From: an uncultured delta proteobacterium
Lineage (GTDB): Bacteria > Desulfobacterota > Syntrophorhabdia > Syntrophorhabdales > WCHB1-27
NCBI GenBank assembly: GCA_963810935.1
Contig: CAWEPK010000001.1
Location: forward strand, 64,001-128,000
Length of the DNA stretch: 64,000 bases
Reading direction: 5' to 3'
The notes under the pieces were generated by a model. It was not told where the DNA came from and searched no databases. It saw nothing but the letters and a program-made list of their open reading frames with translations. The position numbers were made by a program, and so were the translations under genes. Positions 921 through 52,057 of this stretch are shown in pieces (within the stretch, counting starts at the first letter, position 1; each line of letters opens with the position of its first letter).

Positions 921-2969
<2,049 letters not shown>

Positions 2970-3044
2970 AGATAGAGAGGGCGGTCGGAGGAAAAATAAT
3001 CGGTTAATGCGGCTCGCCTTTTCGGGCGAGGACGGCGGTCGGCT

Positions 3045-3089
3045 AAAAAGATGGGCGGGCAGCCCCAAAAAAGGCGCCCGCCCATCTTT
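3045..3089 (-). terminator. intrinsic terminator of the atp F0 operon
   Basis: aaagatgggcgggc...gcccgcccatcttt inverted repeat with a U-tract on the minus strand just after the atpE stop. Confidence 0.7.
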
Positions 3090-3094
3090 ATTTG

Positions 3095-3421
3095 CTATAG
3101 CTTGAAGAACAGAAGCAACGAGATAACGAGTGAATATATTACCAGCGATTCGATCATGGCAAGACCGATAATCATCGGGGTGATGATCTTCCCCGAAGCC
3201 CCGGGATTCCTGCCGATGCCGTCCAATGCCGACGCTACGGCGCGGCCCTGGCCGATGCCTCCGCCGGCAGCCGCAATGCCCAAGCCTATGCCTGCAGCGA
3301 TGGCGATCATCGCTTTAACCTGCGGATCGAGTCCCGCAGTCGGCTCCGCCGCCATGGCGATGCCGCAGGAAAAACTCAGGATAACTCCAGTAAGCATAAG
3401 AACCACTAACGTTTTCTTCAT
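3095..3421 (-). CDS. atpE: F0F1 ATP synthase subunit c
   Basis: GGGIGQG, RNP loop, IESLVIY ion-binding Glu; N-terminal signal-like extension. Confidence 0.95.
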   Translation of the reverse strand: MKKTLVVLMLTGVILSFSCGIAMAAEPTAGLDPQVKAMIAIAAGIGLGIAAAGGGIGQGRAVASALDGIGRNPGASGKIITPMIIGLAMIESLVIYSLVISLLLFFKL

Positions 3422-3450
3422 AATGTGTTCACCCCCTTCCAATCGTTACA

Positions 3451-4149
3451 TTAAAGTTCTTCGTGGGCAATAGCCCCCGCAAAATAGGCCATAGACAGAA
3501 GCATAAAGACAAACGCCTGCACAAGTGCGACGAACGTGCCGAGGACCATGCCGAGCAGCGGCACGAAAAGGGGGACGAGCATAAAAAATATGCTCGTCAC
3601 GAGGTGGTCCCCCATGATGTTGCCGAAAAGCCTCAAACCCAGGGAAAGAGGCCTCGCGAGATTGCCGATTATCTCGATTGGGATCATCAGCGGGGCGAGC
3701 CACCAGATAGGTCCCATGAAGTGCTTCACGTACTTTACCCCGTGTTCCCGTATGCCGTAGTAATGGGTCAGGACGAAGACGGTGAGCGAGCAGGCGAACG
3801 TCGTGTTTACGTTGTCGGTAGCGGGCGAAAAGCCGGGCACAAGGCCGGAGAGGTTATTGAAGAGTATGAAGAGGCCGAGGGTGCCGATAATCAGCATAAA
3901 CTCCTTGCCTCTCGGTCCCATCGTGTCCTCGACCAGGCCGGAGATCGCCTCTATTATCAGCTCCGCCACATTCTTGAACGTCAGTTTATCGTCCGGCACT
4001 ATCGAGTCCTTGCGCTTCACCAACTGGGAATAACCCAGGAAGACGATGACCAGCAGGAAAACGGAGACTATGATGCCGTTGGAGACGTGTGTGGGCAGCG
4101 ACCGGAGGCCCGGTATCAGCGACGCCCAGGTAAATTGTTCATGCTCCAT
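3451..4149 (-). CDS. atpB: F0F1 ATP synthase subunit a
   Basis: RPLSLGLRLFGNI and QAFVFMLLSMAY signatures. Confidence 0.95.
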   Translation of the reverse strand: MEHEQFTWASLIPGLRSLPTHVSNGIIVSVFLLVIVFLGYSQLVKRKDSIVPDDKLTFKNVAELIIEAISGLVEDTMGPRGKEFMLIIGTLGLFILFNNLSGLVPGFSPATDNVNTTFACSLTVFVLTHYYGIREHGVKYVKHFMGPIWWLAPLMIPIEIIGNLARPLSLGLRLFGNIMGDHLVTSIFFMLVPLFVPLLGMVLGTFVALVQAFVFMLLSMAYFAGAIAHEEL

Positions 4150-4528
4150 TCTGTTTCCTCCTACCCTCCGGCATGAATGCTGTTATTATCTGGCTGGCGA
4201 GAATTGAGATAACGACCGTGGAAAGCCCGATGAGGAAGAAGAGAAGATTGACGTTGCCCCAGATCACGATGACGGCAACCAGCCCCCCGATCCCGAAAAA
4301 CTTGACGGGCAGCTTGATAAGAAGCTCTTTCTTGTTGATCTTCGATCCGGCGAAAAAGGCTTCCATGATTTTTCTCAGGAAGCGGAAATTGAGCGTCATT
4401 ACTGCGCTTGCAACCCCGAAGCTGAAGACGTAGACGAAATTGCGCATGACGACCATGGAGGCGATCGAGCCCAGGACGAGGATGATCACATTCAGCCGTT
4501 CTATGTCAGTTGTGGTCGTCTCCCTCAT
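4139..4528 (-). CDS. atpI: ATP synthase protein I
   Basis: Small 4-TM protein overlapping the atpB start. Confidence 0.7.
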   Translation of the reverse strand: MRETTTTDIERLNVIILVLGSIASMVVMRNFVYVFSFGVASAVMTLNFRFLRKIMEAFFAGSKINKKELLIKLPVKFFGIGGLVAVIVIWGNVNLLFFLIGLSTVVISILASQIITAFMPEGRRKQNGA

Positions 4529-4748
4529 CTTCCTTTTCCATCTTCTTCCAGAGCGTATAAAGGCGCTTCATTCCCGCAGCAATTCCGAAGCCCATAAATA
4601 TGAGGGTCAGGATCGGCGATGTTCCGAAGAACCGGTCAAGGAAATAGCCTATGGCTAATCCGATGGCCAGCGAGACCCCCATCTCTATGCCCAAGGTGCC
4701 GTAGTTCAGAAGGGAAGAAAGTATCTCCCTCTTGTCGTTCCCCGTCAT
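4506..4748 (-). CDS. atpZ: AtpZ/AtpI family (ATPase gene 1) protein
   Basis: GLAIGYFLDRFFGTSP motif; first gene of the F0 operon; alternative start at 4772. Confidence 0.75.
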   Translation of the reverse strand: MTGNDKREILSSLLNYGTLGIEMGVSLAIGLAIGYFLDRFFGTSPILTLIFMGFGIAAGMKRLYTLWKKMEKEDEGDDHN

Positions 4749-41825: not shown

Positions 41826-43284
41826 ATGCAAAACCAGGAGCAGTTGGAAAAAATCGTAGGAAAGAGGAACATGAGCGACGCGCCGGAGACCCTCTCGCGG
41901 TATTCGAGCGATTATAGCTTGGTTCCCTCGGGGATGCCCGACGTAGTCGTGCAGCCTAAGGACAACGAAGAAGTATCGGCAGTGGTGAAATGGGCCAACG
42001 AGAATGACGTGCCGGTAATCCCGGTCAGCTCGCCGGTCCATTTTTACGGCTGCACGATACCCAAGCAGGGCGGAGTGGTCGTCGATCTGGCCAAAATGAA
42101 CAAGATTTTTGAGATCGACACATACAACCGCAGGGTAAGGATAGAGCCGGGCGTAACCTGGAAGCAGTTGACGGACGAGCTGAGCAAGAAAGGCATGAGG
42201 ATGATCATGCCCTTACTGCCTCTGGCCGAGCGGTCCGTGCTTACCGATTACCTCGAGCGCGAAGTGCCGACCAATACCGTATACGACTACGGCGAGCCGA
42301 CCCAGAGCTTCGAGTCTGGTTTGGCCGACAGGCGAGATATTCAGGCTCGGCTCCGCGAGCGTCAACGGCTACCCCGACTCGCAATCGAAGGGCGCCAACC
42401 CTTCGGGCCCGGGCCTCGACTTCTACCGCTTCCTGCAGGGCGCCCAGGGCACGATGGGCATCGTCACGTGGATGAACCTCAAGATCGAGTTCGAGACGAC
42501 GATCGACAAGATTTACTGCGCGCCCGTCGAAGACCTCGCGTACGTCCAGGAATTCCTGTACAGGCTCCTGCCGAGGAGAATAGGGCAGGAAGTCGTCCTC
42601 CTGAACAACGTCGATATGGCTGCAATCCTGGCCGAAAAGTGGCCGGACGATTTCGAGAAGCTGCGTGCGGCTCTGCCGCCGTGGTCCCTCGTCATGATAA
42701 TCAGCGGACTCAAGAGACGGCCGGAAGAGAAGGTGGCTTACGAAGAGAAGTACCTCAACAACCTTATCAAGACCGAGTTCCAGAAGATCAAGCTGTCCGA
42801 CAGCCTCGCGGGCTTCCCGGGAGCGGGCCGTAAGCTCCTCTCGATGCTGCGCAAGCCGTGGCCTTCCAACAAGCCTTACTGGAAAAACGCTTGGAAGGGC
42901 GGCAGCCAGAGCCTCTTCTTCATCGGCAGGCCGAACGTAACGCCGCTCTACGTCGAGATCGTAGAGGAAGTGGCGGCGAGATACGGCTATCCTATGGCGG
43001 ACATCGGCATGTATATCCAGCCCATAGAGCACAACCGCGCGGCTCATGTCGAGTTTACGTTCTTCCACGACCCGGACGACGCCGAGCAAAAGGCGGCCGT
43101 CGGCGCCCTCTATATAGAGGCGGCGAAGGCCCTGATGGCCGAAGGCGGCTTCTTCTCGCGGCCTTACGGTGACCTGGCCCCCATCGTGTACGAAAGGGCG
43201 GCGGGTTACACGACGGCCCTCAAGCGGGTAAAGAAGGTCTTCGACCCGAAGAACGTCCTGAACCCCGGAAATCTCTGTTTCTAA
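41826..43284 (+). CDS. FAD-binding oxidoreductase (GlcD/VAO family); +1 frameshift at about 42315
   Basis: PDVVVQP, GGVVVDL..MN, EPGVTW, then GAQGTMGIVT and C-terminal FDPKNVLNPG. Confidence 0.88.
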
Positions 43285-43294
43285 GGAGGATACG

Positions 43295-44611
43295 ATGCCA
43301 AAAGATCGCTTCGATACACCTAAAAAGCCGGTCGCCCTGGACGTGACCGCCCTTGATAACTTTGCATACGACATGAGTCGCTGCATCAAGTGCAAAGGCT
43401 GCTACTGGGTAGAACATACCTATATGCCCGGCGTCCGGTTCAGCACCCGGTGCCCGAGTAACGTTTGGAACGATTTCGATTCTTATGGCGCTTTCGGCAA
43501 ATGTAGGATCGGTCTGGCCGTCCTTGACGGCAAGCTGAAGTGGACGCCGAAGCTCCTGGAGATCATTTACGCAGACCCCCTGTGCGGCGCTTGCGACGTG
43601 GGCTGCAAGAGGAACCTCGACCTCGAGATAGAGCTTACACTGGAGGCGCTCCGTGTAAGGGCCGTCCAGGACGGCGCGGGCCCCATGCCTGCCCACAAGA
43701 AGATAGCCGAGAACATCGATAAGAAGCAGAACCAGTTCGGCGCGCCCGCCGCTAACCGCAAGAAATGGGTCACCAAAGACATCAAGGTTGCGCCGAAGGC
43801 GGACGTCCTTTATTTCGCGGGCTGCTCCTCGTCCTACGTCAACCCGGAGATCGCCCAGGCGACTGCCAAGATCCTGAACGGGTCCGGCACGCCTTTCATG
43901 ATGCTCGCAAACGAGTCGTGCTGCGGCAACACGGTTTATTCCGTCGGCATGGTCAAAGAGACCAAGAAGATCGCCAAGGCCAACATAGATAAGGTCAAGG
44001 CGAGCGGGGCGAAGGTGCTCCTGACGAGCTGCGCCGAGTGCTACAGGACGTGGAAGGTCGATTATCCGAAAGTCCTTAATATATCGACGGACGACCTCGG
44101 GTTTAAGGTTGTCCACCTCATAGAGTTTGCCGACGACCTGATGAAGGCCGGCAAGCTGAAACTCAAGAAAGCCCAGGACATCAGGATGACCTACCATGAC
44201 TCGTGCGGCGTCAGCAGGCTTTGCGACCCGTGGACACCCTGGAAAGGCGAGAGGGGCTGGATGGGTATGGTGGAGCCCAGGCTGAAAAGGCGCCGGGGTA
44301 CGACCGGCCTGTACGCCCAGCCGAGGAACCTCCTGTCCGCCATTCCGGGCGCGCAGTTGGTCGAGATGCCGCGCATAAGAGAGAACGCATTTTGCTGCGC
44401 GGCCGGCCGCGGCACAAAAGCCGCCTTCCCGGACCTCGCCAACTCCTCCGCCAGACTGCGGCTGGAAGAAGTGAGGGAAGTGGGAGCAGAGGTGCTCGTC
44501 TCAGCCTGCCCGTGGTGCAAGCAGAACTTCAGCCAGGCGGTCAGGGAGAACGGCGATGGCGTCAAGGTCATGGACATCGCCGAAGTTATCGCTGCCTCGA
44601 TGAAGGCTTAA
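43295..44611 (+). CDS. (Fe-S)-binding oxidoreductase subunit (GlcF/HdrD-like, CCG domains)
   Basis: CIKCKGC, LCGACDVGC, FAGC, ESCCG, SCAEC, YHDSC, FCCAAG, SACPWC. Confidence 0.9.
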   Translation: MPKDRFDTPKKPVALDVTALDNFAYDMSRCIKCKGCYWVEHTYMPGVRFSTRCPSNVWNDFDSYGAFGKCRIGLAVLDGKLKWTPKLLEIIYADPLCGACDVGCKRNLDLEIELTLEALRVRAVQDGAGPMPAHKKIAENIDKKQNQFGAPAANRKKWVTKDIKVAPKADVLYFAGCSSSYVNPEIAQATAKILNGSGTPFMMLANESCCGNTVYSVGMVKETKKIAKANIDKVKASGAKVLLTSCAECYRTWKVDYPKVLNISTDDLGFKVVHLIEFADDLMKAGKLKLKKAQDIRMTYHDSCGVSRLCDPWTPWKGERGWMGMVEPRLKRRRGTTGLYAQPRNLLSAIPGAQLVEMPRIRENAFCCAAGRGTKAAFPDLANSSARLRLEEVREVGAEVLVSACPWCKQNFSQAVRENGDGVKVMDIAEVIAASMKA

Positions 44612-44621
44612 GGAGGGAGTC

Positions 44622-46233
44622 ATGCCTATATCTAAACAAGCATTCAACGCGCTGAACTCCGTCGTCGGCGAGAAATATATCTCCGATGACCCCGCTATCT
44701 GCGAGGGATACAGGTCGGGACCGGGTGGGTATGAGGCCGGCTGCGGCTACGAGCGGGTCATGTGTACGATCCCCGCGGTCGTGATACTGCCCCGGACCAC
44801 GGAAGAAGTGCAGAAGATCGTTAGGATCTGCAACCGCTACAAGGTGCCCTATGTTCCTTACAGCACCGGGTTTTACGGGCCGCGCTCCCATTGCCACGTG
44901 GAGAACGAGCTCCTTATCGACCTGAAGCGGCTTAACGATTATGAGATCGACGAGAAGCACCTGTACGCGGTCGTCGGGACGGGCGTTATTTACTCGCCCT
45001 TCCAGCAGGAGGCGTTCAACCACGGCGGCTACGGCATCATCGGCGGCGGCGGCGCGCAGGCGTCCGTTATCGCCAACCTGATCGGCGACGGCTGGTCGCC
45101 CCTGTCGCACAGGGTCGGGCTGCCGCACAGGAGGATCCTCGGAACGGGAGCTGGTCCTTCCCGATGGAGAGATAGTGAAGATGGGCTCCCTCGCAGTCGG
45201 CGACGACCCGTTCTGGGGCGACGGCCCCGGCCCGGACCTCAGGGGCTTGCTCAGGGGCTTCACGGGCCTGCGCGGCTGCCTCGGCATCGTCACGAAAATG
45301 GCCGTGAAGCTGTTGCCCTTCCAGCCGGAAAGGCTCGAGCCGACGGGCATCGCGCCGAATACGGGCCTGAGCTTGCCTGAGAAGCGTGTGAAGTGGATTA
45401 ATTTCCAGATGCCGACAAAAGAAGCCCAGGTGAAGGGCATGCTCGCGATAGGCCATGCGGAGGTGGCCGGCGCCGTGACGAAGGTGCCCCTCTTCTGGAG
45501 GGCGATTGCCAAGGCGGAGTGCAAGGAAGAGTTCTGGGACATCTGGGGTAAGGAGAACGAGGATACCATCAAAAACTTTTTCATCCTGCGGGTCCTGCTC
45601 ATCGGCTTTACCTCCGAAGAGCAGATGGAGTATGACGAAAAGGTGGTCAACGACATCATGGCGGAGTTGGGCGGCATCCCGAGACCGACCAAGCCGACCG
45701 ACGAGTCATGGCTCAAGAACGCGGACTCGGCGGGCATGTGGCTCATGACCGGCTCCTATATGTCGGTGGACTACATCATCGAGTCGATGTCGCAGGCGAC
45801 CGTCCACGGCGAGAGCTACGCGAAGGTTAAAAAAGGCTACACGCCTCCACTGATGCCCGACTACGGCGACCCGGGATGGTTCCAGAGCTTCGAGCTGGGC
45901 CACCAGGGCTACTCGGAATTCCTCATTTACTGGGACCACGACGAGGACACGAACGGCGTAGACCAGTTCTACATCGATACGTCGAAGATGAACATAAAAG
46001 AGCGGTATTACACATCGCTCCTCGGCCCTCACCAGCCGCTGTTCCTCACCGGGCCGAAGTACGGTCCGAACTACCACATATTCATGCTCAAGGTGAAGGA
46101 CGAATTCGACCCCATGTGGGTATGCCACCCGCCTGTACCGCTTGCGCACGACGAGTTCGTGGACAGGGCGCCGTGGATGAAGAAGATGAAGGATTGGGAG
46201 AGCCCCAAGAAGCTGCCCATGCCGAAGTGGTAA
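44622..46233 (+). CDS. FAD-binding oxidoreductase (GlcD/VAO family); +1 frameshift at about 45147
   Basis: PAVVILPRTTEEVQKIV.ICN, IDLKRLN, then ELVLPDGEIV, GPGPDLRG, LGIVTKMAVKL, FDP. Confidence 0.88.
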
Positions 46234-46289
46234 GACTGGCGGGATAGCGACAGAAGGCCGCCCGAGCGGGCGCCATCCGAAAGAACAGG

Positions 46290-46323
46290 CAGGCCGGGCC
46301 GTCATGGTCCGGCCTGTTTTTTT
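46290..46323 (+). terminator. intrinsic terminator
   Basis: caggccgggcc-gtcat-ggtccggcctg followed by T7. Confidence 0.8.
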
Positions 46324-46340
46324 GGTGAGCGGGGTAACCG

Positions 46341-48201
46341 ATGGAAAAGAATAGGGCCTTTTCGGTGGAAGAAATCGCCTCCTACCTGGCTGGCCGCCTG
46401 GAACGGCGCCGGAAAGGGGTAGGGGGCAAAGCGGCCGCTCTCAGGCCGCCCGGCAGACAGGGCGGGAGAGCGGCGGGCCGGATAAAAGCCCCGCGCGACG
46501 GCGCCACGGCTGCGGTGGTTGCAGACAGGCTCGCCGGCCTTGTCCTGGAGAAGCAGGACCTTAATAGGCAGGTCATCGCCGACGAGCGCGCCTGCGCGGG
46601 GAAAGAGCGCTCGATAGGGCAGGGCGCACTCCTCGCTGCGATCGGTGCGCCGGAGGGCGCAGACCTGAAAGGCGCCGACCTTAAGGCGCTGGTCGCCCGC
46701 ATCGGCATCAGCCAGGGAGTGGAGAGGCTCGATTGAAGGGGCGAAAAAGCGGCTGGCCGATATCGACAGGGAGACGGCCGCGATGCTGGCCGACCCGGAG
46801 GTAGCGGAGGCCTACCGGAAGAAGACGGCGGACAGGATAGCCGTCATCCGTGCGGCCAGGGACGCCGAGAGCCTGCAAAAACTGATAGAGAAATCGGAGC
46901 TTGCACGGCTGCACCTCGTCGCCCACAGAAACGGGGCGGACCTCGTGCTGTCAGCGGCGGACGAGGAGACGGTAAGAAAGTACGCCGCAGTCTGCGGTGC
47001 TGCGCGCGAGAGGATCGAGCGCCTGATAGGGCGCGAGGACGTCTACTACGAGGCGAAGAGGCGCACCCTCCTCGAATACCGCCGCCAGCTCATGACGGGC
47101 GGGTTCGTGAGGACGGAAAGCGTGAAGGCGCAGATCATGCGGATCTTAAGCCACGTGCGACTGGGCATCCCCGTGTTCCTGCGGGGCCACCTGGGGGTCG
47201 GCAAGACGGAGACGGCGCTCCACGTATCGCGCGCCTACCTCGGGTTCGAGCCCGAGTTCATTTCAGGCTCCGAAGAGGCGACGAAGTACGATATCTACGG
47301 CCGGACGCAGATAGGCATAGGCAGCGACGAAGAGCGGCTTCAAGAGTACGCAAGGAGAATGGAAGAATACCGCCGCCTCCACCCGTCCGCCTCCGGCGCC
47401 GAATTGGGCGACGTCGAGCGCAGCTACTATCGGGCCATTGTCGTCCAGCGGCAGGCGACCAGCTTTTTCCAGTACGGCCCGCTCGTTCAGGCAATGAGAC
47501 AGGGCAAGCCGCTCATCATCGACGAGATGGACGGCATACCGCACTCGATACTGATGCGCATCAACCACGTCCTCACGAGAAGGGCGGGGGACCGCATCAA
47601 GGTGCAGGAGAACGGCGGCGAGGAAATAGCCGTAGAAAAGGGCTTCTGCGTGCTTGCGACAGGCAACGTGAAATCGGCCCGGTACAAGCGTGAGGAGCTC
47701 GATGCGGCCTTCCTGTCCAGATGGTGGTCCGAGGACGTGAGATATCCGCCGCAGGGCGAGGCTTACGAAATCCTTTTGGCCGCGCTGATAGACAAAAGGG
47801 GCGAGCTTCGGATGCGTGCGCCCGGCGGCCTCGAAGACCTCAAACGGCTTACGGAGGCGGCCGCCGAGATACAGCGTATTTTTACAGGCGAGCGGATCGA
47901 TTTCCTGGGCGAAGGTGCGGACGCGACAAGGGGTACGCCCGCGGGCTTAAAGAAAAGTGTCCTTTCCCTGCGCCACCTGTGGAACATCGTCAAGCCGTGG
48001 AAGGCGCACAATTACGACCGCCCGATAGACGACTATATCCTGAACGAGTTCATCAAGCCCGCAGTGGCCGAAGACCAGGTATACCTCGTGCAGTTGTTCT
48101 GCCGCTTCCGTTTTTTCAAGGACTGGACGGCAGACCGTTTCGAGATGCCCGGCCTTACGCCCGACAAGCTGGCTGCGTTCCAGGGAAGACAGGCACACTG
48201 A
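46341..48201 (+). CDS. MoxR/dynein-related AAA+ ATPase with long helical N-terminus (probable +1 frameshift near 46710; alternatively two ORFs)
   Basis: Walker A GHLGVGKT, Walker B LIIDEMD, ATGN sensor, LDAAFLSRW Arg finger; the 46783 frame is open upstream and overlaps ORF 46341-46736. Confidence 0.8.
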
Positions 48202-48202
48202 G

Positions 48203-49633
48203 TTGACATCAACCAAAGACCCGGCACCCGCTATATCCTCACGGCGCATCGTCGATGCCCTCTACGGCCGGCCGGGCGCCGGCAGGGGCGCAAAAAGCAT
48301 CGAGGCCTTCAGGAAAAAAGGCATAGCCAAGCCTGCCCCGTTCGAGGCCCCTGTCTACGCGGGCGACGACCGGGAGTACGTCGTGGACCTTTCCGGGTTC
48401 GATGTAGTCAACGACCCTAGGGACGCAGGGGGCCGCATTGTTTTCCGGGCGACGCAGGGGGCAAAGGAATTCGTAGTCAACGAGAAGGGGGAAAAAGTCG
48501 GAGGCGAATTCGACGAGGCGAGCGACCCGCAGGTCATCGGCGACCGGTTTGCTTTCAGGGCCAGGCGCAGGGACAAGACGTTCATCGTCGGGGCGGACGG
48601 CGAGCGGGTAGGAGGGAAGTACGACGCAGTCGGCCTGCCCCGGTCCATAGGCGGTCATATCGCCTTCCGTGCGCGGCTCGGGGATAACTGCTTTATCGTG
48701 AGCGAGGACGGATCTCCGGCGGGCGGTGAATACGATAGCGTCGGCGACCCGCAGAACATAGGCGGCCGTATCGCATTCCGGGCGGTGCGGGGCGGCAGGG
48801 CGTTCATCGTGGACGGCAATGAGGTGGCGGGCGGTGAATACGATAGCGCAGGCGACCCGCAGAACGTGGAAGGGCGCGTCGTCTTCCAGGCGGCGGCAGG
48901 CGGAAGGCATTTTGTAATGGACGACGCAGGCCGCAGGATAGGAGGGGAATACGACTACGTAAGCCTGCCCCGGTCCATAGGCGGCCGCATCGCCTTCTGG
49001 GCGCGCCTCGGCACGCGATATTTCGTCGTAAGCGAAGACGCCGGCCGCGTGGGCGGAGAGTACGACTCAATCGGCGACCCGCAGGACATGGGCGGGCGCA
49101 TCGCATTCCGCGCGATGGAGCGGATGAAGTGGTTCATCGTCAACGAGAAAGGCGAGCGGGTAGGCGGCCTTTACGATTCCGTGCGCGACCCGGCTTACGT
49201 CTGCGACAGATGCGTCTTCTGGGCCATGCTCAGCCACCGCTACTTTATCGTCGATGAAAACGGCGCAAGGATTGGAGGGGAGTACGACATAGTGAGCGGC
49301 CCGCGCGCTATCGGCGGCCAGGTGGTCTTCAAGGCGGTGGACCGCTTCAGGCAGTTCATCGTGGGCGAGAAGGCGGAGCGGATGGGCGGCGACTACGCTT
49401 ACGTGAGCGCGCCCTATGACATCCACGGCAGGGTCATGTTCCGGGCGCGCTTCGATGCTGGTTTCTTTATCGCCGACGGAGCGGGCAGGAGAACCAGGCG
49501 CGAATACGACGCGATCCACACGCTGCGGCCGCTTGCCGGGGACCGGATGTATATCATCGCGAAAAAGCGGAACGCCTACATGAAAGAAACGTTTGCCATA
49601 GAGAAAGACATGGCCCGTATGGGGGCCGGGTGA
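48203..49633 (+). CDS. tandem beta-repeat protein (11 x ~37 aa)
   Basis: Repeats GGEYDxVxxPxxIGGRIAFRAxxxxxxFIVxExGxRV; no signal peptide. Confidence 0.8.
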   Translation: MTSTKDPAPAISSRRIVDALYGRPGAGRGAKSIEAFRKKGIAKPAPFEAPVYAGDDREYVVDLSGFDVVNDPRDAGGRIVFRATQGAKEFVVNEKGEKVGGEFDEASDPQVIGDRFAFRARRRDKTFIVGADGERVGGKYDAVGLPRSIGGHIAFRARLGDNCFIVSEDGSPAGGEYDSVGDPQNIGGRIAFRAVRGGRAFIVDGNEVAGGEYDSAGDPQNVEGRVVFQAAAGGRHFVMDDAGRRIGGEYDYVSLPRSIGGRIAFWARLGTRYFVVSEDAGRVGGEYDSIGDPQDMGGRIAFRAMERMKWFIVNEKGERVGGLYDSVRDPAYVCDRCVFWAMLSHRYFIVDENGARIGGEYDIVSGPRAIGGQVVFKAVDRFRQFIVGEKAERMGGDYAYVSAPYDIHGRVMFRARFDAGFFIADGAGRRTRREYDAIHTLRPLAGDRMYIIAKKRNAYMKETFAIEKDMARMGAG

Positions 49634-51480
49634 TGAAGAAAATGTCGCGCGCCGTGGAGGCGCAGACTATAGAGGCGGCGGAAAGGTTCTTTGCCGATAA
49701 CAGGCAGGCCATCGCCGACTACGCGGAGTCCGCCGGCCTCGTCTTCGCTCCGGGGGAGCGCTGGTCGATAGACATGGCGGCCGGGCGCGGCACTTACGAG
49801 CCTGTTTTTTTCACGCGCCGAGGCTTCACGGCGGCAGAGAGCATGTGGGCGGTCTGCCACGAGATCGAGCACTTCAGGGACTGGCGCGCCGACCCGGAAG
49901 CCTACGCTGCGCTCTATAAAAGAATAGGCAGAGGGGGCAGGAGACTCGACCTCCTCTACCACGAGATCAACGACATCCTCGCGAACCGCGAGGAAGACCG
50001 CAGGTTCCCGGCCCACATCGAAACGCGCACCATGCTTTACGCGCGGAGGCTGATGCCCCAGACGGACTACACGAGAAGGCCCCGGCATCTGGCGTTCGTC
50101 GATGCTATCCTCAGGGAAAAGGTGCTGCCCGATGAAGAGGTTGCGTGTGTCCCGGAAGTGCGGGCGGAGCTGGACAGGCTGAGGAATATCGACGGCGAGG
50201 GGACGGACCTGATAGAGCTTGTATGTGACGCGGCGAGCCGCGCGGCGGACCGCTTCGATCTGATCAAGGACTACATCGAGCCTATATACGAGAGGTTCTT
50301 TCACCAGGACGTGGAGGAACGGGAGAGGGCGAAGCGGAAGAAGAAAAACGTCGCCGACGGTGACTCGGCAGAGCTGAGCATCGACGGCGCAAAGTCGGGG
50401 ACCGGCAAGGCCGAGGCCGAGGTGGACCCCATGTCTGCGGAGGAATTATTCGCAGGCGAGTACGATGAGGCGGAGCAAAGGCTTTCCAGGGCGCTCTCCC
50501 CTAAAGAGGTCAGAGAGGCCGTGGCTGCCGAGATAGAGCGCCGCAAGGAAGAGCTGAGAACGCCGGAAGAGATGGCCAGGCGCCAGTTCAGGGCGCTCCA
50601 CGGCGTGCCGGTGGAAGAGGTCGAAGACTACGCGGAGCAGTACGCGAAGGTGAGGGAGCATATCCTGCCCCTGCGGGCCGTCTTCGAGCGGGTAATAGCC
50701 AGGCGCAAGGAAGTGAGGCGGCGGCTCAAGGAGCGCACGGACCAGGGGGTCATCACCGACCCTTCGCTTCTCGCCCAGGCCTACATCGACAGTCTGAGCG
50801 GCATCGTCGATTCCCGCACGCAACTGGGCATCAGAATAGAGGAGCTTGACGAGCAACGGCCCCTCGATTTCGAGTTCACGCTGATCTGCGACGTCTCCGG
50901 CTCCATGAGCGAGAACTCACCCGGAGGCAAGAGCTACGAGCAGTGCCTTTGCGCCATTTTGATAACCGAAGCCCTCGACGAGTTCGAGAAGAAGCTCTAT
51001 GAACAGAGGCGCGAGCTGCTGGTCGATCTGCGCGTCTTCACGGAGGTGCGCGGCTTCGGCGCAGAGGACGAAGAGCTGAAAGGCATGAGCAACGCAATCG
51101 ACTACCGGACGCGCGTGGCCGTAAGCAGGCGGTTAGAGGCGTGCACGGGCAGGCGGACGGCCGATTACAAGTCGCTCGCCCACGTGGCCGCCGCCTTGGG
51201 CGGCGTGGCCGCGACTCCGGCAGAGGGCAGGGACCTGAAGAAAGCGGTTGTCCTTATCACGGACGGCGGCAGCGACGACCCGGCGCTGACGAAAGAGGCG
51301 AAAGGCAGGCTCGATACGCTGGGCGTCACGGTGAAGGCGATCCAGATAGGCGAACCGTCGAGCGAAGACATCGAAAAATTCAGGTACGTATGGGGAGACG
51401 ACGGCCTGCCATGCAAAGACGTCTCGCAACTGGCGGCGACGTTGGAGAAGTTGCTGGAAGGGTTGTTGGAAGATTTGTAG
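49630..51480 (+). CDS. VWA domain protein with N-terminal HExxH metallopeptidase-like motif
   Basis: HEIEH; charged linker; MIDAS DVSGSMS...T...ITDG; overlaps the upstream stop. Confidence 0.85.
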   Translation: MMKKMSRAVEAQTIEAAERFFADNRQAIADYAESAGLVFAPGERWSIDMAAGRGTYEPVFFTRRGFTAAESMWAVCHEIEHFRDWRADPEAYAALYKRIGRGGRRLDLLYHEINDILANREEDRRFPAHIETRTMLYARRLMPQTDYTRRPRHLAFVDAILREKVLPDEEVACVPEVRAELDRLRNIDGEGTDLIELVCDAASRAADRFDLIKDYIEPIYERFFHQDVEERERAKRKKKNVADGDSAELSIDGAKSGTGKAEAEVDPMSAEELFAGEYDEAEQRLSRALSPKEVREAVAAEIERRKEELRTPEEMARRQFRALHGVPVEEVEDYAEQYAKVREHILPLRAVFERVIARRKEVRRRLKERTDQGVITDPSLLAQAYIDSLSGIVDSRTQLGIRIEELDEQRPLDFEFTLICDVSGSMSENSPGGKSYEQCLCAILITEALDEFEKKLYEQRRELLVDLRVFTEVRGFGAEDEELKGMSNAIDYRTRVAVSRRLEACTGRRTADYKSLAHVAAALGGVAATPAEGRDLKKAVVLITDGGSDDPALTKEAKGRLDTLGVTVKAIQIGEPSSEDIEKFRYVWGDDGLPCKDVSQLAATLEKLLEGLLEDL

Positions 51481-51712: not shown

Positions 51713-52057
51713 ATGAAGAAGGAATATGTTGAGATTCTTTTTGAAGACGTAAAAGAGAAATTTGAATTGATCCTCGAAGGTCATGAAGGCCTGCGTCATG
51801 AAATCAGGGACGTGCGCCAAGAGATGAATGAGAAGTTCGAATTGGTTGACGTGAAGATTGGCGCGCTTAATAAGAAGATCGATCACGTGGCAGCCGATCT
51901 CAACGCGAAAATAGATCACGTAGCCGCTGATCTCGGTAGCAGAATAGATCACGTAGCCGCTGATCTCGGTAGCAAAATAGATAACGTAGCGGCTGACCTC
52001 TCCTCCCATCGGGCCGATACGGAAAGTCACCATAGAGGGTACAAAGTCTCGGAATAG
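51713..52057 (+). CDS. small coiled-coil protein with 11-residue repeats
   Basis: (I)D[HN]VAADL repeated four times with an 11-aa period. Confidence 0.7.
   Translation: MKKEYVEILFEDVKEKFELILEGHEGLRHEIRDVRQEMNEKFELVDVKIGALNKKIDHVAADLNAKIDHVAADLGSRIDHVAADLGSKIDNVAADLSSHRADTESHHRGYKVSE
51878..52009 (+). repeat. 33-bp coding tandem repeat x4
   Basis: atagatcacgtagccgctgatctcggtagcaRa-type units at 51878, 51911, 51944, 51977. Confidence 0.85.

Follow-up and report, generated by a model that had tools for sequence, protein, structure and literature searches.

A MoxR-type ATPase, beta-propeller and HExxH-vWA gene trio of Syntrophorhabdales with an apparent origin in retroelement loci of Patescibacteria

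The three-gene locus analysed here lies in a 64,000-nucleotide stretch (the window: positions 64,001 to 128,000 of contig CAWEPK010000001.1, assembly GCA_963810935.1) from an uncultured, free-living soil member of the Syntrophorhabdales, the order to which its close named homologues also point, and encodes a MoxR/midasin-type AAA+ ATPase, a beta-propeller repeat protein and a partner that joins an HExxH motif to a von Willebrand factor A (vWA) domain with a metal ion-dependent adhesion site (MIDAS). The closest described systems include the targets of diversity-generating retroelements (DGRs) in the Patescibacteria, or candidate phyla radiation (CPR). An AAA-fused type is reported as the commonest CPR DGR target, and its ATPase has been suggested to transduce a signal (PMC10907252, the former citing Paul et al. 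2017); 'g1/UVR4, Midasin-like' targets have also been listed (PMC5758913), and CPR DGR targets are mostly without recognisable domains (PMC8144416). Among MoxR-vWA pairs, the head and finger of the NorQD partner give the motor two grip points (PMC13036017), the head of the CobST partner is described as attaching at the edge of the ring, where it may act as a scaffold (bioRxiv 10.64898/2026.10.09.757910), and group 2.2 jumbo phages carry a MoxR and metallopeptidase-vWA pair proposed to process proteins (PMC7824862). The Esr pathway, a MoxR-vWA-propeller system, defends oral Actinomycetota against Saccharibacteria (PMC13622651). Our literature searches found no published description of the trio, nor is it described in the available text of PMC8144416, PMC11661182 and PMC12455944; Paul et al. 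2017 and its supplements could bear on the partners.

Scanning genomes with an alignment of the vWA protein, we obtained 36 loci, 17 of the trio type and 19 of a CPR type (the latter assigned by label or gene content; one Gammaproteobacteria-labelled locus falls in a Patescibacteria class). A DGR-type reverse transcriptase (RT) accompanies 14 of the 19 CPR-type vWA loci, whereas none of the 17 trio-type loci has one, and eight CPR-type loci contain adenine-specific pairs of template repeat (TR) and variable region (VR), differing almost only at adenines. The nearest relatives of the module outside the recipients come from Patescibacteria, at about 50% identity. At one CPR locus (L061) the genes run in the order ATPase, handle-bearing target, TR, Avd, RT and vWA protein, which is the order of the window with a retroelement inserted. 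Distant CPR loci carry the VR within the ATPase, at its end, which is the class reported as the commonest CPR target (PMC10907252; PMC5758913). The CPR loci nearest to the window encode the target in a gene of its own, and one such separate target shares 40% identity with the tail region of a fused CPR ATPase; the window ATPase shares about 50% identity with the split CPR forms and 24-30% with the fused ones. The VRs of the donor targets lie at their C-termini, in domains for which Pfam and solved-structure searches gave no match and which may be CLec-like. Because the donor counterpart of the repeat protein is the DGR-diversified target, the repeat protein occupies the sensor slot of the system.

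The queries used found no RT, Avd or TR/VR pair at the window locus or in its own genome, which likewise gave no RT match. RT matches occur in 24 of the 96 Syntrophorhabdales genomes, unsorted by RT class; the three genomes with the strongest ones, which match a CPR DGR reverse transcriptase well (G031, G048 and G057; loci L154-L156), are without the trio. At another locus (L030), a stand-alone target (300-1205) and a fused ATPase (2003-4546) end in an identical variable region, and the two genes between them presumably form a HEPN/nucleotidyltransferase-like pair.

In phylogenetic trees of both proteins the recipient sequences form one branch inside CPR diversity, with SH-aLRT support of 100 (vWA) and 99 (ATPase), the trees being quick searches without bootstrap that were rooted at the midpoint or on long-branch outgroups. 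The CPR carriers span several candidate groups, and the other carriers are one order plus strays. Transfer out of the CPR is, on these sequences, the simplest reading. A preliminary description of the window, made from its letters alone, had suggested horizontal acquisition and guessed at a patescibacterial donor, which now looks most likely; missing from its picture were the link to a retroelement and an N-terminal handle shared with the donor targets.

This handle comprises the first ~40 residues that the window propeller and the CPR DGR targets have in common, with no likeness between them beyond it. A handle profile run against 1.84 billion representative proteins gave 18 matches, two of them low-complexity noise, and the 16 credible proteins carry at least four types of binder: DGR-type domains, the 37-aa propeller, helical repeats and a 31-aa beta repeat. 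Two to three handle genes per genome were present in three of the five CPR genomes checked; L063 holds two, whose tails differ. Syntrophorhabdales have one handle gene each in 17 of 96 genomes, always within the operon. A handle search of 401 CPR genomes matched only in the centre genome, which makes the split form uncommon among the genomes sampled. When six further CPR ATPases were compared with the profile, the best window in four of them (which are related) was the same segment directly after the lid domain; one of these handle-like tails was beaten by none of 200 shuffles, the other three by 16, 39 and 60. We infer from this pattern that the handle derives from the tail of the ATPase and now serves to dock the binder to the ring. 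A position-specific scan of the linker of distant fused ATPases, which ranked 1-18 of ~145-190 windows only with a post-hoc gap, is given little weight. Beside related CPR ATPase/vWA pairs lie arrays of paralogous genes with shared N-termini (L180, 7503-12080; L181, 10020-11057; L178, 3301-10852), which suggests other handle types. In L063, a CCA-adding/poly(A) polymerase-HD protein and the adjacent vWA protein (396-2108 and 2401-4341) have nearly the same first ~20 residues, and several proteins there begin with a similar M-x-x-F-E pattern.

The gene junctions given in the preliminary description were reproduced in the window: the TGA of the ATPase gene ends at 48201, the repeat gene starts with TTG at 48203, and a GTGA overlap joins the repeat gene to the last gene (49630-49633). 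The terminator that it placed before the trio is present as a consensus match, a hairpin with a T-run just 5' of the ATG at 46341; terminator-like sites in the region number 8 versus 5.5 in shuffles, so their count alone is not above chance. The single ATPase reading frame that it described is, as assembled, two open reading frames (ORFs) of 131 aa and 472 aa in different frames, both of which match single homologues of ~600 aa. Relative to the close relative L013, the window carries one surplus base near 46726, and this base is missing from the short-read contigs of one of four runs (X3), while in a second run a contig end breaks off in agreement with this; all four runs come from a single study, which may include the sample that was assembled. 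Most likely, then, the break arose in assembly and the gene is one 619-aa ORF, for which the earlier start at 46341 is therefore right. Single extra bases also frameshift both upstream FAD-oxidase genes (41826-43284, near 42315, and 44622-46233, near 45146) and are missing from the short-read contigs of three and four of the four runs, respectively; broken genes elsewhere in the same assembly call for caution.

No 19-residue segment of the trio proteins exceeds a Kyte-Doolittle value of 1.08, and we therefore find no transmembrane segment in them. The earlier claim that signal peptides are absent stands to the extent that there is no hydrophobic stretch of membrane length, no dedicated signal-peptide predictor having been applied. 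GC content at third codon positions (GC3) is 0.78-0.81 in the trio, within the 5-95% range of the genome (0.55-0.82), a composition without sign of recent transfer. Right after the trio, in a lower-GC stretch, a gene with a GC3 of 0.51 (51713-52057) encodes a 114-aa coiled-coil protein with 11-aa tandem repeats, which gave weak coiled-coil matches only.

Table 1. Coordinates of the trio, its motifs and its upstream context in the window.
Feature	Position	Strand	Basis
FAD-oxidase / CCG Fe-S / FAD-oxidase operon, native; the trio usually lies inserted behind it	41826..46233	+	Present in 55 of 96 genomes of the order
Hairpin resembling an intrinsic terminator, at the end of the upstream FAD-oxidase / Fe-S operon	46287..46325	+	15-pair stem and T-run; consensus match only
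MoxR/midasin-type AAA+ ATPase, 619 aa when intact	46341..48201	+	Pfam AAA_5; split in the assembly into 46341-46736 and 46783-48201
Extra base causing the ATPase frameshift, most likely an assembly error	46724..46727	+	Absent in close relative L013 and in the short-read contig of run X3
Walker A, GHLGVGKT	47185..47208	+	G135, G140, K141, T142 invariant in 74/74 aligned homologues
Walker B, IIDE	47515..47526	+	D247, E248 invariant in 74/74 aligned homologues
Sensor-1 N295 and arginine finger R313, both downstream of Walker B	47719-47721 (R313)	+	Invariant in 74/74 aligned homologues
Predicted cytoplasmic sensor/adaptor protein, 476 aa, handle and beta-propeller	48203..49633	+	AlphaFold2 mean pLDDT 89.5; orthologues 41-57% identical
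N-terminal handle, two helices, ~40 aa, V-D-x-x-YG-x-P ... F-x-K-K-x-I-x-KP	48233..48337	+	Alignment A5; model helices 13-21 and 27-38
Beta-propeller, ~11 blades, 37-aa PD40/WD40-like repeats	48371..49597	+	Fold search, all top matches propellers
Partner, 616 aa: putative zincin-like head ~10-240, flexible charged linker 241-265, helical stalk and finger, vWA/MIDAS 410-616	49630..51480	+	Model pLDDT 84.6
HEIEH motif, aa 77-81	49858..49872	+	Intact in the window copy
D115, probable third metal ligand	49972-49974		N-x-x-x-D-x-x-x-N pattern
MIDAS DVSGS (D421-S423-S425), completed by T510 and D545	50890..50904	+	Alignment of 88 homologues

The ATPase matches Pfam AAA_5 (E 1e-14), and midasin is its sole solved relative in a profile search (E 7e-23). 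Its Walker, sensor-1 and arginine-finger residues are those with established roles in AAA+ proteins generally. The large insert that had been noticed between Walker A and Walker B is present as a helical segment of ~50 aa, and several fused CPR relatives are without it. The protein thus has the AAA_5 match, Walker motifs, sensor 1, arginine finger, helix-2 insert and linked vWA protein with an intact MIDAS that mark the MoxR/dynein-midasin clade. An NCBIfam search of the trio returned nothing but a sub-threshold GvpN match, and no cob, nor or rav genes were found among the flanking genes scanned.

The 37-aa beta-repeat seen in the second protein resolves into ten GGxYD-anchored units at 37-aa spacing (one of 36) and one further unit N-terminal to them, which together are modelled as a propeller of ~11 blades. 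Fold-search scores for this domain are middling (best Z 12.6, rmsd 9.5, 255 aligned), and its leads in the Atlas are PD40 families with scores under 0.9. Judged by length, the blade number varies from ~9 to 12 in ten orthologues, and part of this spread may be misassembly of the repeats. The idea of a hypervariable slot, which came from a single match in the first homologue search, was dropped when tblastn and genome searches gave conserved orthologues. Seven weak propeller matches in the order were rejected as module members: they are unlinked PD40-like proteins, most with signal-peptide-like N-termini. The nearest outside relative of the propeller is P0202. Syntrophorhabdales also have a separate family of PD40-like propellers (L111-L117), mostly with signal-peptide-like starts and with related repeats, as a possible source of the sensor domain.

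The third protein does combine HEIEH with a MIDAS-bearing vWA domain, as had been reported. It is modelled as a helical head with the HEIEH motif, followed by a disordered charged linker, a stalk and the vWA domain. In fold searches, residues 320-616 align with the MDN1/Rea1 MIDAS region (Z 22.6, rmsd 2.9, 215 aligned) and with NorD (Z 17.4, rmsd 3.0, 197 aligned). The fold searches were filled by vWA-domain matches; for the head there is an Atlas lead, a cluster with CobT in 15% of its members (score 0.94). We presume from an N-x-x-x-D-x-x-x-N pattern that D115 is a metal ligand alongside the HEIEH residues.

Conservation in the partner is uneven. D421, S425, T510 and D545 of the MIDAS are present in 88 of 88 homologues, and S423 in 87. 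For the peptidase motif, the 88 vWA homologues were grouped by similarity (the tree separates the groups with one change), four gapped sequences were dropped and 'CPR-like' was assigned by tree; on this count all 27 CPR-like proteins, and 39 of the 57 from the recipient clade, keep H77, E78, H81 and D115. The window copy likewise has all four residues. In the remaining 18 of 57, which are otherwise full-length, the motif is broken through at least six changes on the tree. These counts bear on the sensor-motor-peptidase machine of the preliminary description. Spelt out as a triggered protease, it would have the propeller sense a ligand, the motor unmask the HExxH head and cleavage of a target follow as the output. 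The sensor part of that proposal has held, and the intact motif set in the window, in all CPR-like proteins and in most of the recipient clade speaks for a triggered protease, as does the processing role proposed for the jumbo-phage pair (PMC7824862). The at least six independent losses in the recipient clade, however, argue against the peptidase part, as do the ring-edge position and possible scaffold function of the equivalent CobST head (bioRxiv 10.64898/2026.10.09.757910) and the lack of fold-search confirmation for a zincin fold; cutting does not look essential in the recipient clade as judged from these alignments, and we regard a triggered protease as rather improbable.

Within the order, the ATPase was found in 19 of 96 genomes and a strong match to the repeat gene also in 19, with 18 genomes common to both lists. 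All three genes stand in order at 14 of the 19 repeat-gene loci and the other five are cut by contig ends, so the co-occurrence that the preliminary description would lead one to expect is there. Only two of 401 genomes sampled across the host phylum carry the module, both within Syntrophorhabdales. Beyond Syntrophorhabdales, copies are sporadic: there is one among 41 genomes sampled from another family and one in a spirochaete-labelled genome, the single carrier among 101 of that order, and a second spirochaete-labelled contig has the repeat and vWA genes. In 12 of the 19 genomes, from both large families, the ATPase gene directly follows the same FAD-oxidase gene, which itself occurs in 55 of the 96 genomes; nine of the 30 loci examined are empty sites, in which the FAD gene runs straight into the next native (Cox-like) genes. 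From this patchy presence and these clean empty sites we conclude that the trio is an accessory insert. Several copies lie elsewhere; relocated ones stand next to what we take to be a resolvase-like gene (L017, 5990-6583) or prophage-like regulators (L009, 2071-4221), hinting at a mobile route. The FAD-oxidase / CCG Fe-S / FAD-oxidase operon at the usual site (also L007, 2241-16920) is mostly 80-98% identical between genomes and is often followed by CoxM/S/L/G-like molybdenum hydroxylase genes; it possibly serves aromatic catabolism. The usual site of the trio lies within a catabolic gene cluster.

This setting raises the prospect of a domesticated chaperone, akin to CoxD/CoxE or NorQ/NorD, that was re-used after the transfer and would mature or repair a FAD/Fe-S or molybdenum enzyme encoded nearby, the propeller acting as adaptor for this client. 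The recurrent position behind the FAD-oxidase gene in both large families fits such a role, as do the CoxM/S/L/G-like genes that often come next, the conserved sensor, and a peptidase motif that decays while the MIDAS is kept. The supposed client, however, is far commoner than the ATPase (55 against 19 genomes), is joined to Cox-like genes without the trio at the nine empty sites, and is separated from the trio by a terminator-like hairpin or, for several copies, by their location elsewhere; we consider a chaperone of this kind unlikely, though second in rank to the account favoured below.

Across three close pairs from three related genomes, dN/dS is 0.11-0.21 for all three genes (more distant pairs being mostly saturated), and the propeller is under purifying, not diversifying, selection. 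The patchy distribution and the broken frame in the assembly could also mean neutral or decaying cargo without current function, but the frame break looks like an assembly error, and the low dN/dS together with invariant ATPase and MIDAS residues largely refutes this explanation, to which we give hardly any credence.

On balance, and with modest confidence in the account as a whole, we favour the view that the trio is a retroelement-free descendant of a recognition-remodelling machine of Patescibacteria that now provides accessory surveillance of an invader protein. The module would have entered Syntrophorhabdales by horizontal transfer, with loss of the retroelement and gain of a fixed sensor, and then have been kept, lost and occasionally passed on. 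By analogy with NorQD, CobST and Rea1, the ATPase would form a ring, the finger of the partner would enter the pore while its head binds the ring edge, and the MIDAS would grip an acidic residue of the target. The fusions suggest that the propeller attaches to the ring via the handle and chooses the target, which ATP-driven twisting would pull apart or inactivate, cutting by the head being optional. A propeller that is fixed and conserved implies a single, likewise conserved ligand, so the target is probably one cytoplasmic protein that varies little; that it most likely comes from an invader (a phage or mobile element) or is an infection signal is the weakest step. The ancestral job was probably recognition in conflict, because the donors randomise the binder.

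Several observations weigh against this account. The split-type CPR ATPases form a sister group (support 87) and not a demonstrably paraphyletic one, and the tree roots are weak. As to the handle, three of the four handle-like CPR ATPase tails are not significant alone, the two other CPR ATPases tested have no such tail, and profile-profile tests gave no significant match between the handle and the linker in six distant fused ATPases. Neither of two queries found a relative on viral contigs. PADLOC (2023 library) gave no match to any of the three proteins even with E allowed up to 1, nothing near the trio was recognised as a defence gene, and the propeller varies more slowly than expected of an arms-race sensor. 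For the possible defensive role named in the preliminary description there is no direct sign: PADLOC gave no match, the usual site is in a catabolic cluster, and selection on the propeller is purifying.

The parasitic habit of the donor lineage admits a further version of events, in which the trio is a weapon captured from an attached Patescibacterium that senses proteins delivered by the epibiont. It has a parallel in the defence of Actinomycetota against Saccharibacteria by the unrelated Esr pathway (PMC13622651). A literature search for a pairing of Syntrophorhabdales with Patescibacteria, however, gave nothing, and the surface filaments, kinases and FHA proteins of Esr are all absent at the trio. 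We think this version very unlikely.

A bolder extension of the surveillance account, which we offer as a tentative possibility, is that the commonest class of Patescibacteria DGR targets is a plug-and-play, midasin-like immune motor, programmed by any binding domain (hypermutated, propeller or helical repeat) borne on a ~40-aa handle that was taken from the tail of the ATPase. A free-living syntroph would have captured this motor from its parasites, discarded the mutator and committed the motor to a single conserved foreign protein. If true, this would amount to a natural programmable unfoldase and to a rare host lineage that keeps a parasite's conflict module. The handle offers a cheap and precise test of such modularity: another binder can be grafted onto it and the motor is redirected or is not. 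Given its single fixed and conserved sensor, the window copy ought to have a single ligand that can be identified, and a pull-down could answer what the hypervariable version cannot. The history would also record the passage of genes from Patescibacteria to a free-living order, with the module kept in two families, the mutator lost and the peptidase motif relaxed.

Among known systems, the CPR DGR-AAA targets share with the window homologous ATPase and vWA genes and the same sensor slot; the window differs in its non-CPR host, the absence of RT, Avd and TR, and its sensor, a separate beta-propeller protein in place of a variable CLec-type domain, and the available text of the descriptions of these targets (PMC10907252, PMC5758913) mentions neither the HExxH-vWA partner nor the handle. 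NorQ/NorD, CobS/CobT and midasin resemble the trio in the layout of the partner as head, linker, finger and vWA domain (PMC13036017; bioRxiv 10.64898/2026.10.09.757910), whereas the window has no cognate client gene and has a long helical N-terminal extension on its ATPase and a dedicated, exchangeable binder. The jumbo-phage pair has the same two-domain architecture in its partner (PMC7824862), but the trio is chromosomal and has a third component. Esr likewise places a beta-propeller sensor upstream of a MoxR-vWA pair and uses it in conflict; it involves surface filaments, a kinase/phosphatase pair and FHA proteins (PMC13622651), whereas the window encodes three proteins, cytoplasmic by prediction, that are likened to it by description. 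The ternary beta-propeller (bpX) system of Kaur et al. 2020 (PMC7159879) also combines a MoxR ATPase, a vWA protein and a third protein of propeller repeats with a patchy distribution. Unlike that system as given in its available text, the window vWA protein carries an HExxH head and ends at the vWA domain with no propeller fused behind; the third component there has a variable N-terminus, a membrane segment and TPR, whereas the window protein has a conserved handle and neither of the latter in model or sequence; and the P-loop there is often GxxxTAKS, against GHLGVGKT in the window with G-K-T invariant in 74 of 74 homologues (PMC7159879). The window protein has no match to bpMoxR at E 0.01, and by these features the trio is distinct from the bpX system. 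With the described bpX features absent and no family match or client linkage to CobST, NorQD or RavA-ViaA, the first impression that the architecture is not a named system agrees with what we find. We conclude that the trio belongs to the MoxR-vWA class and probably descends from the CPR DGR-AAA system without its retroelement.

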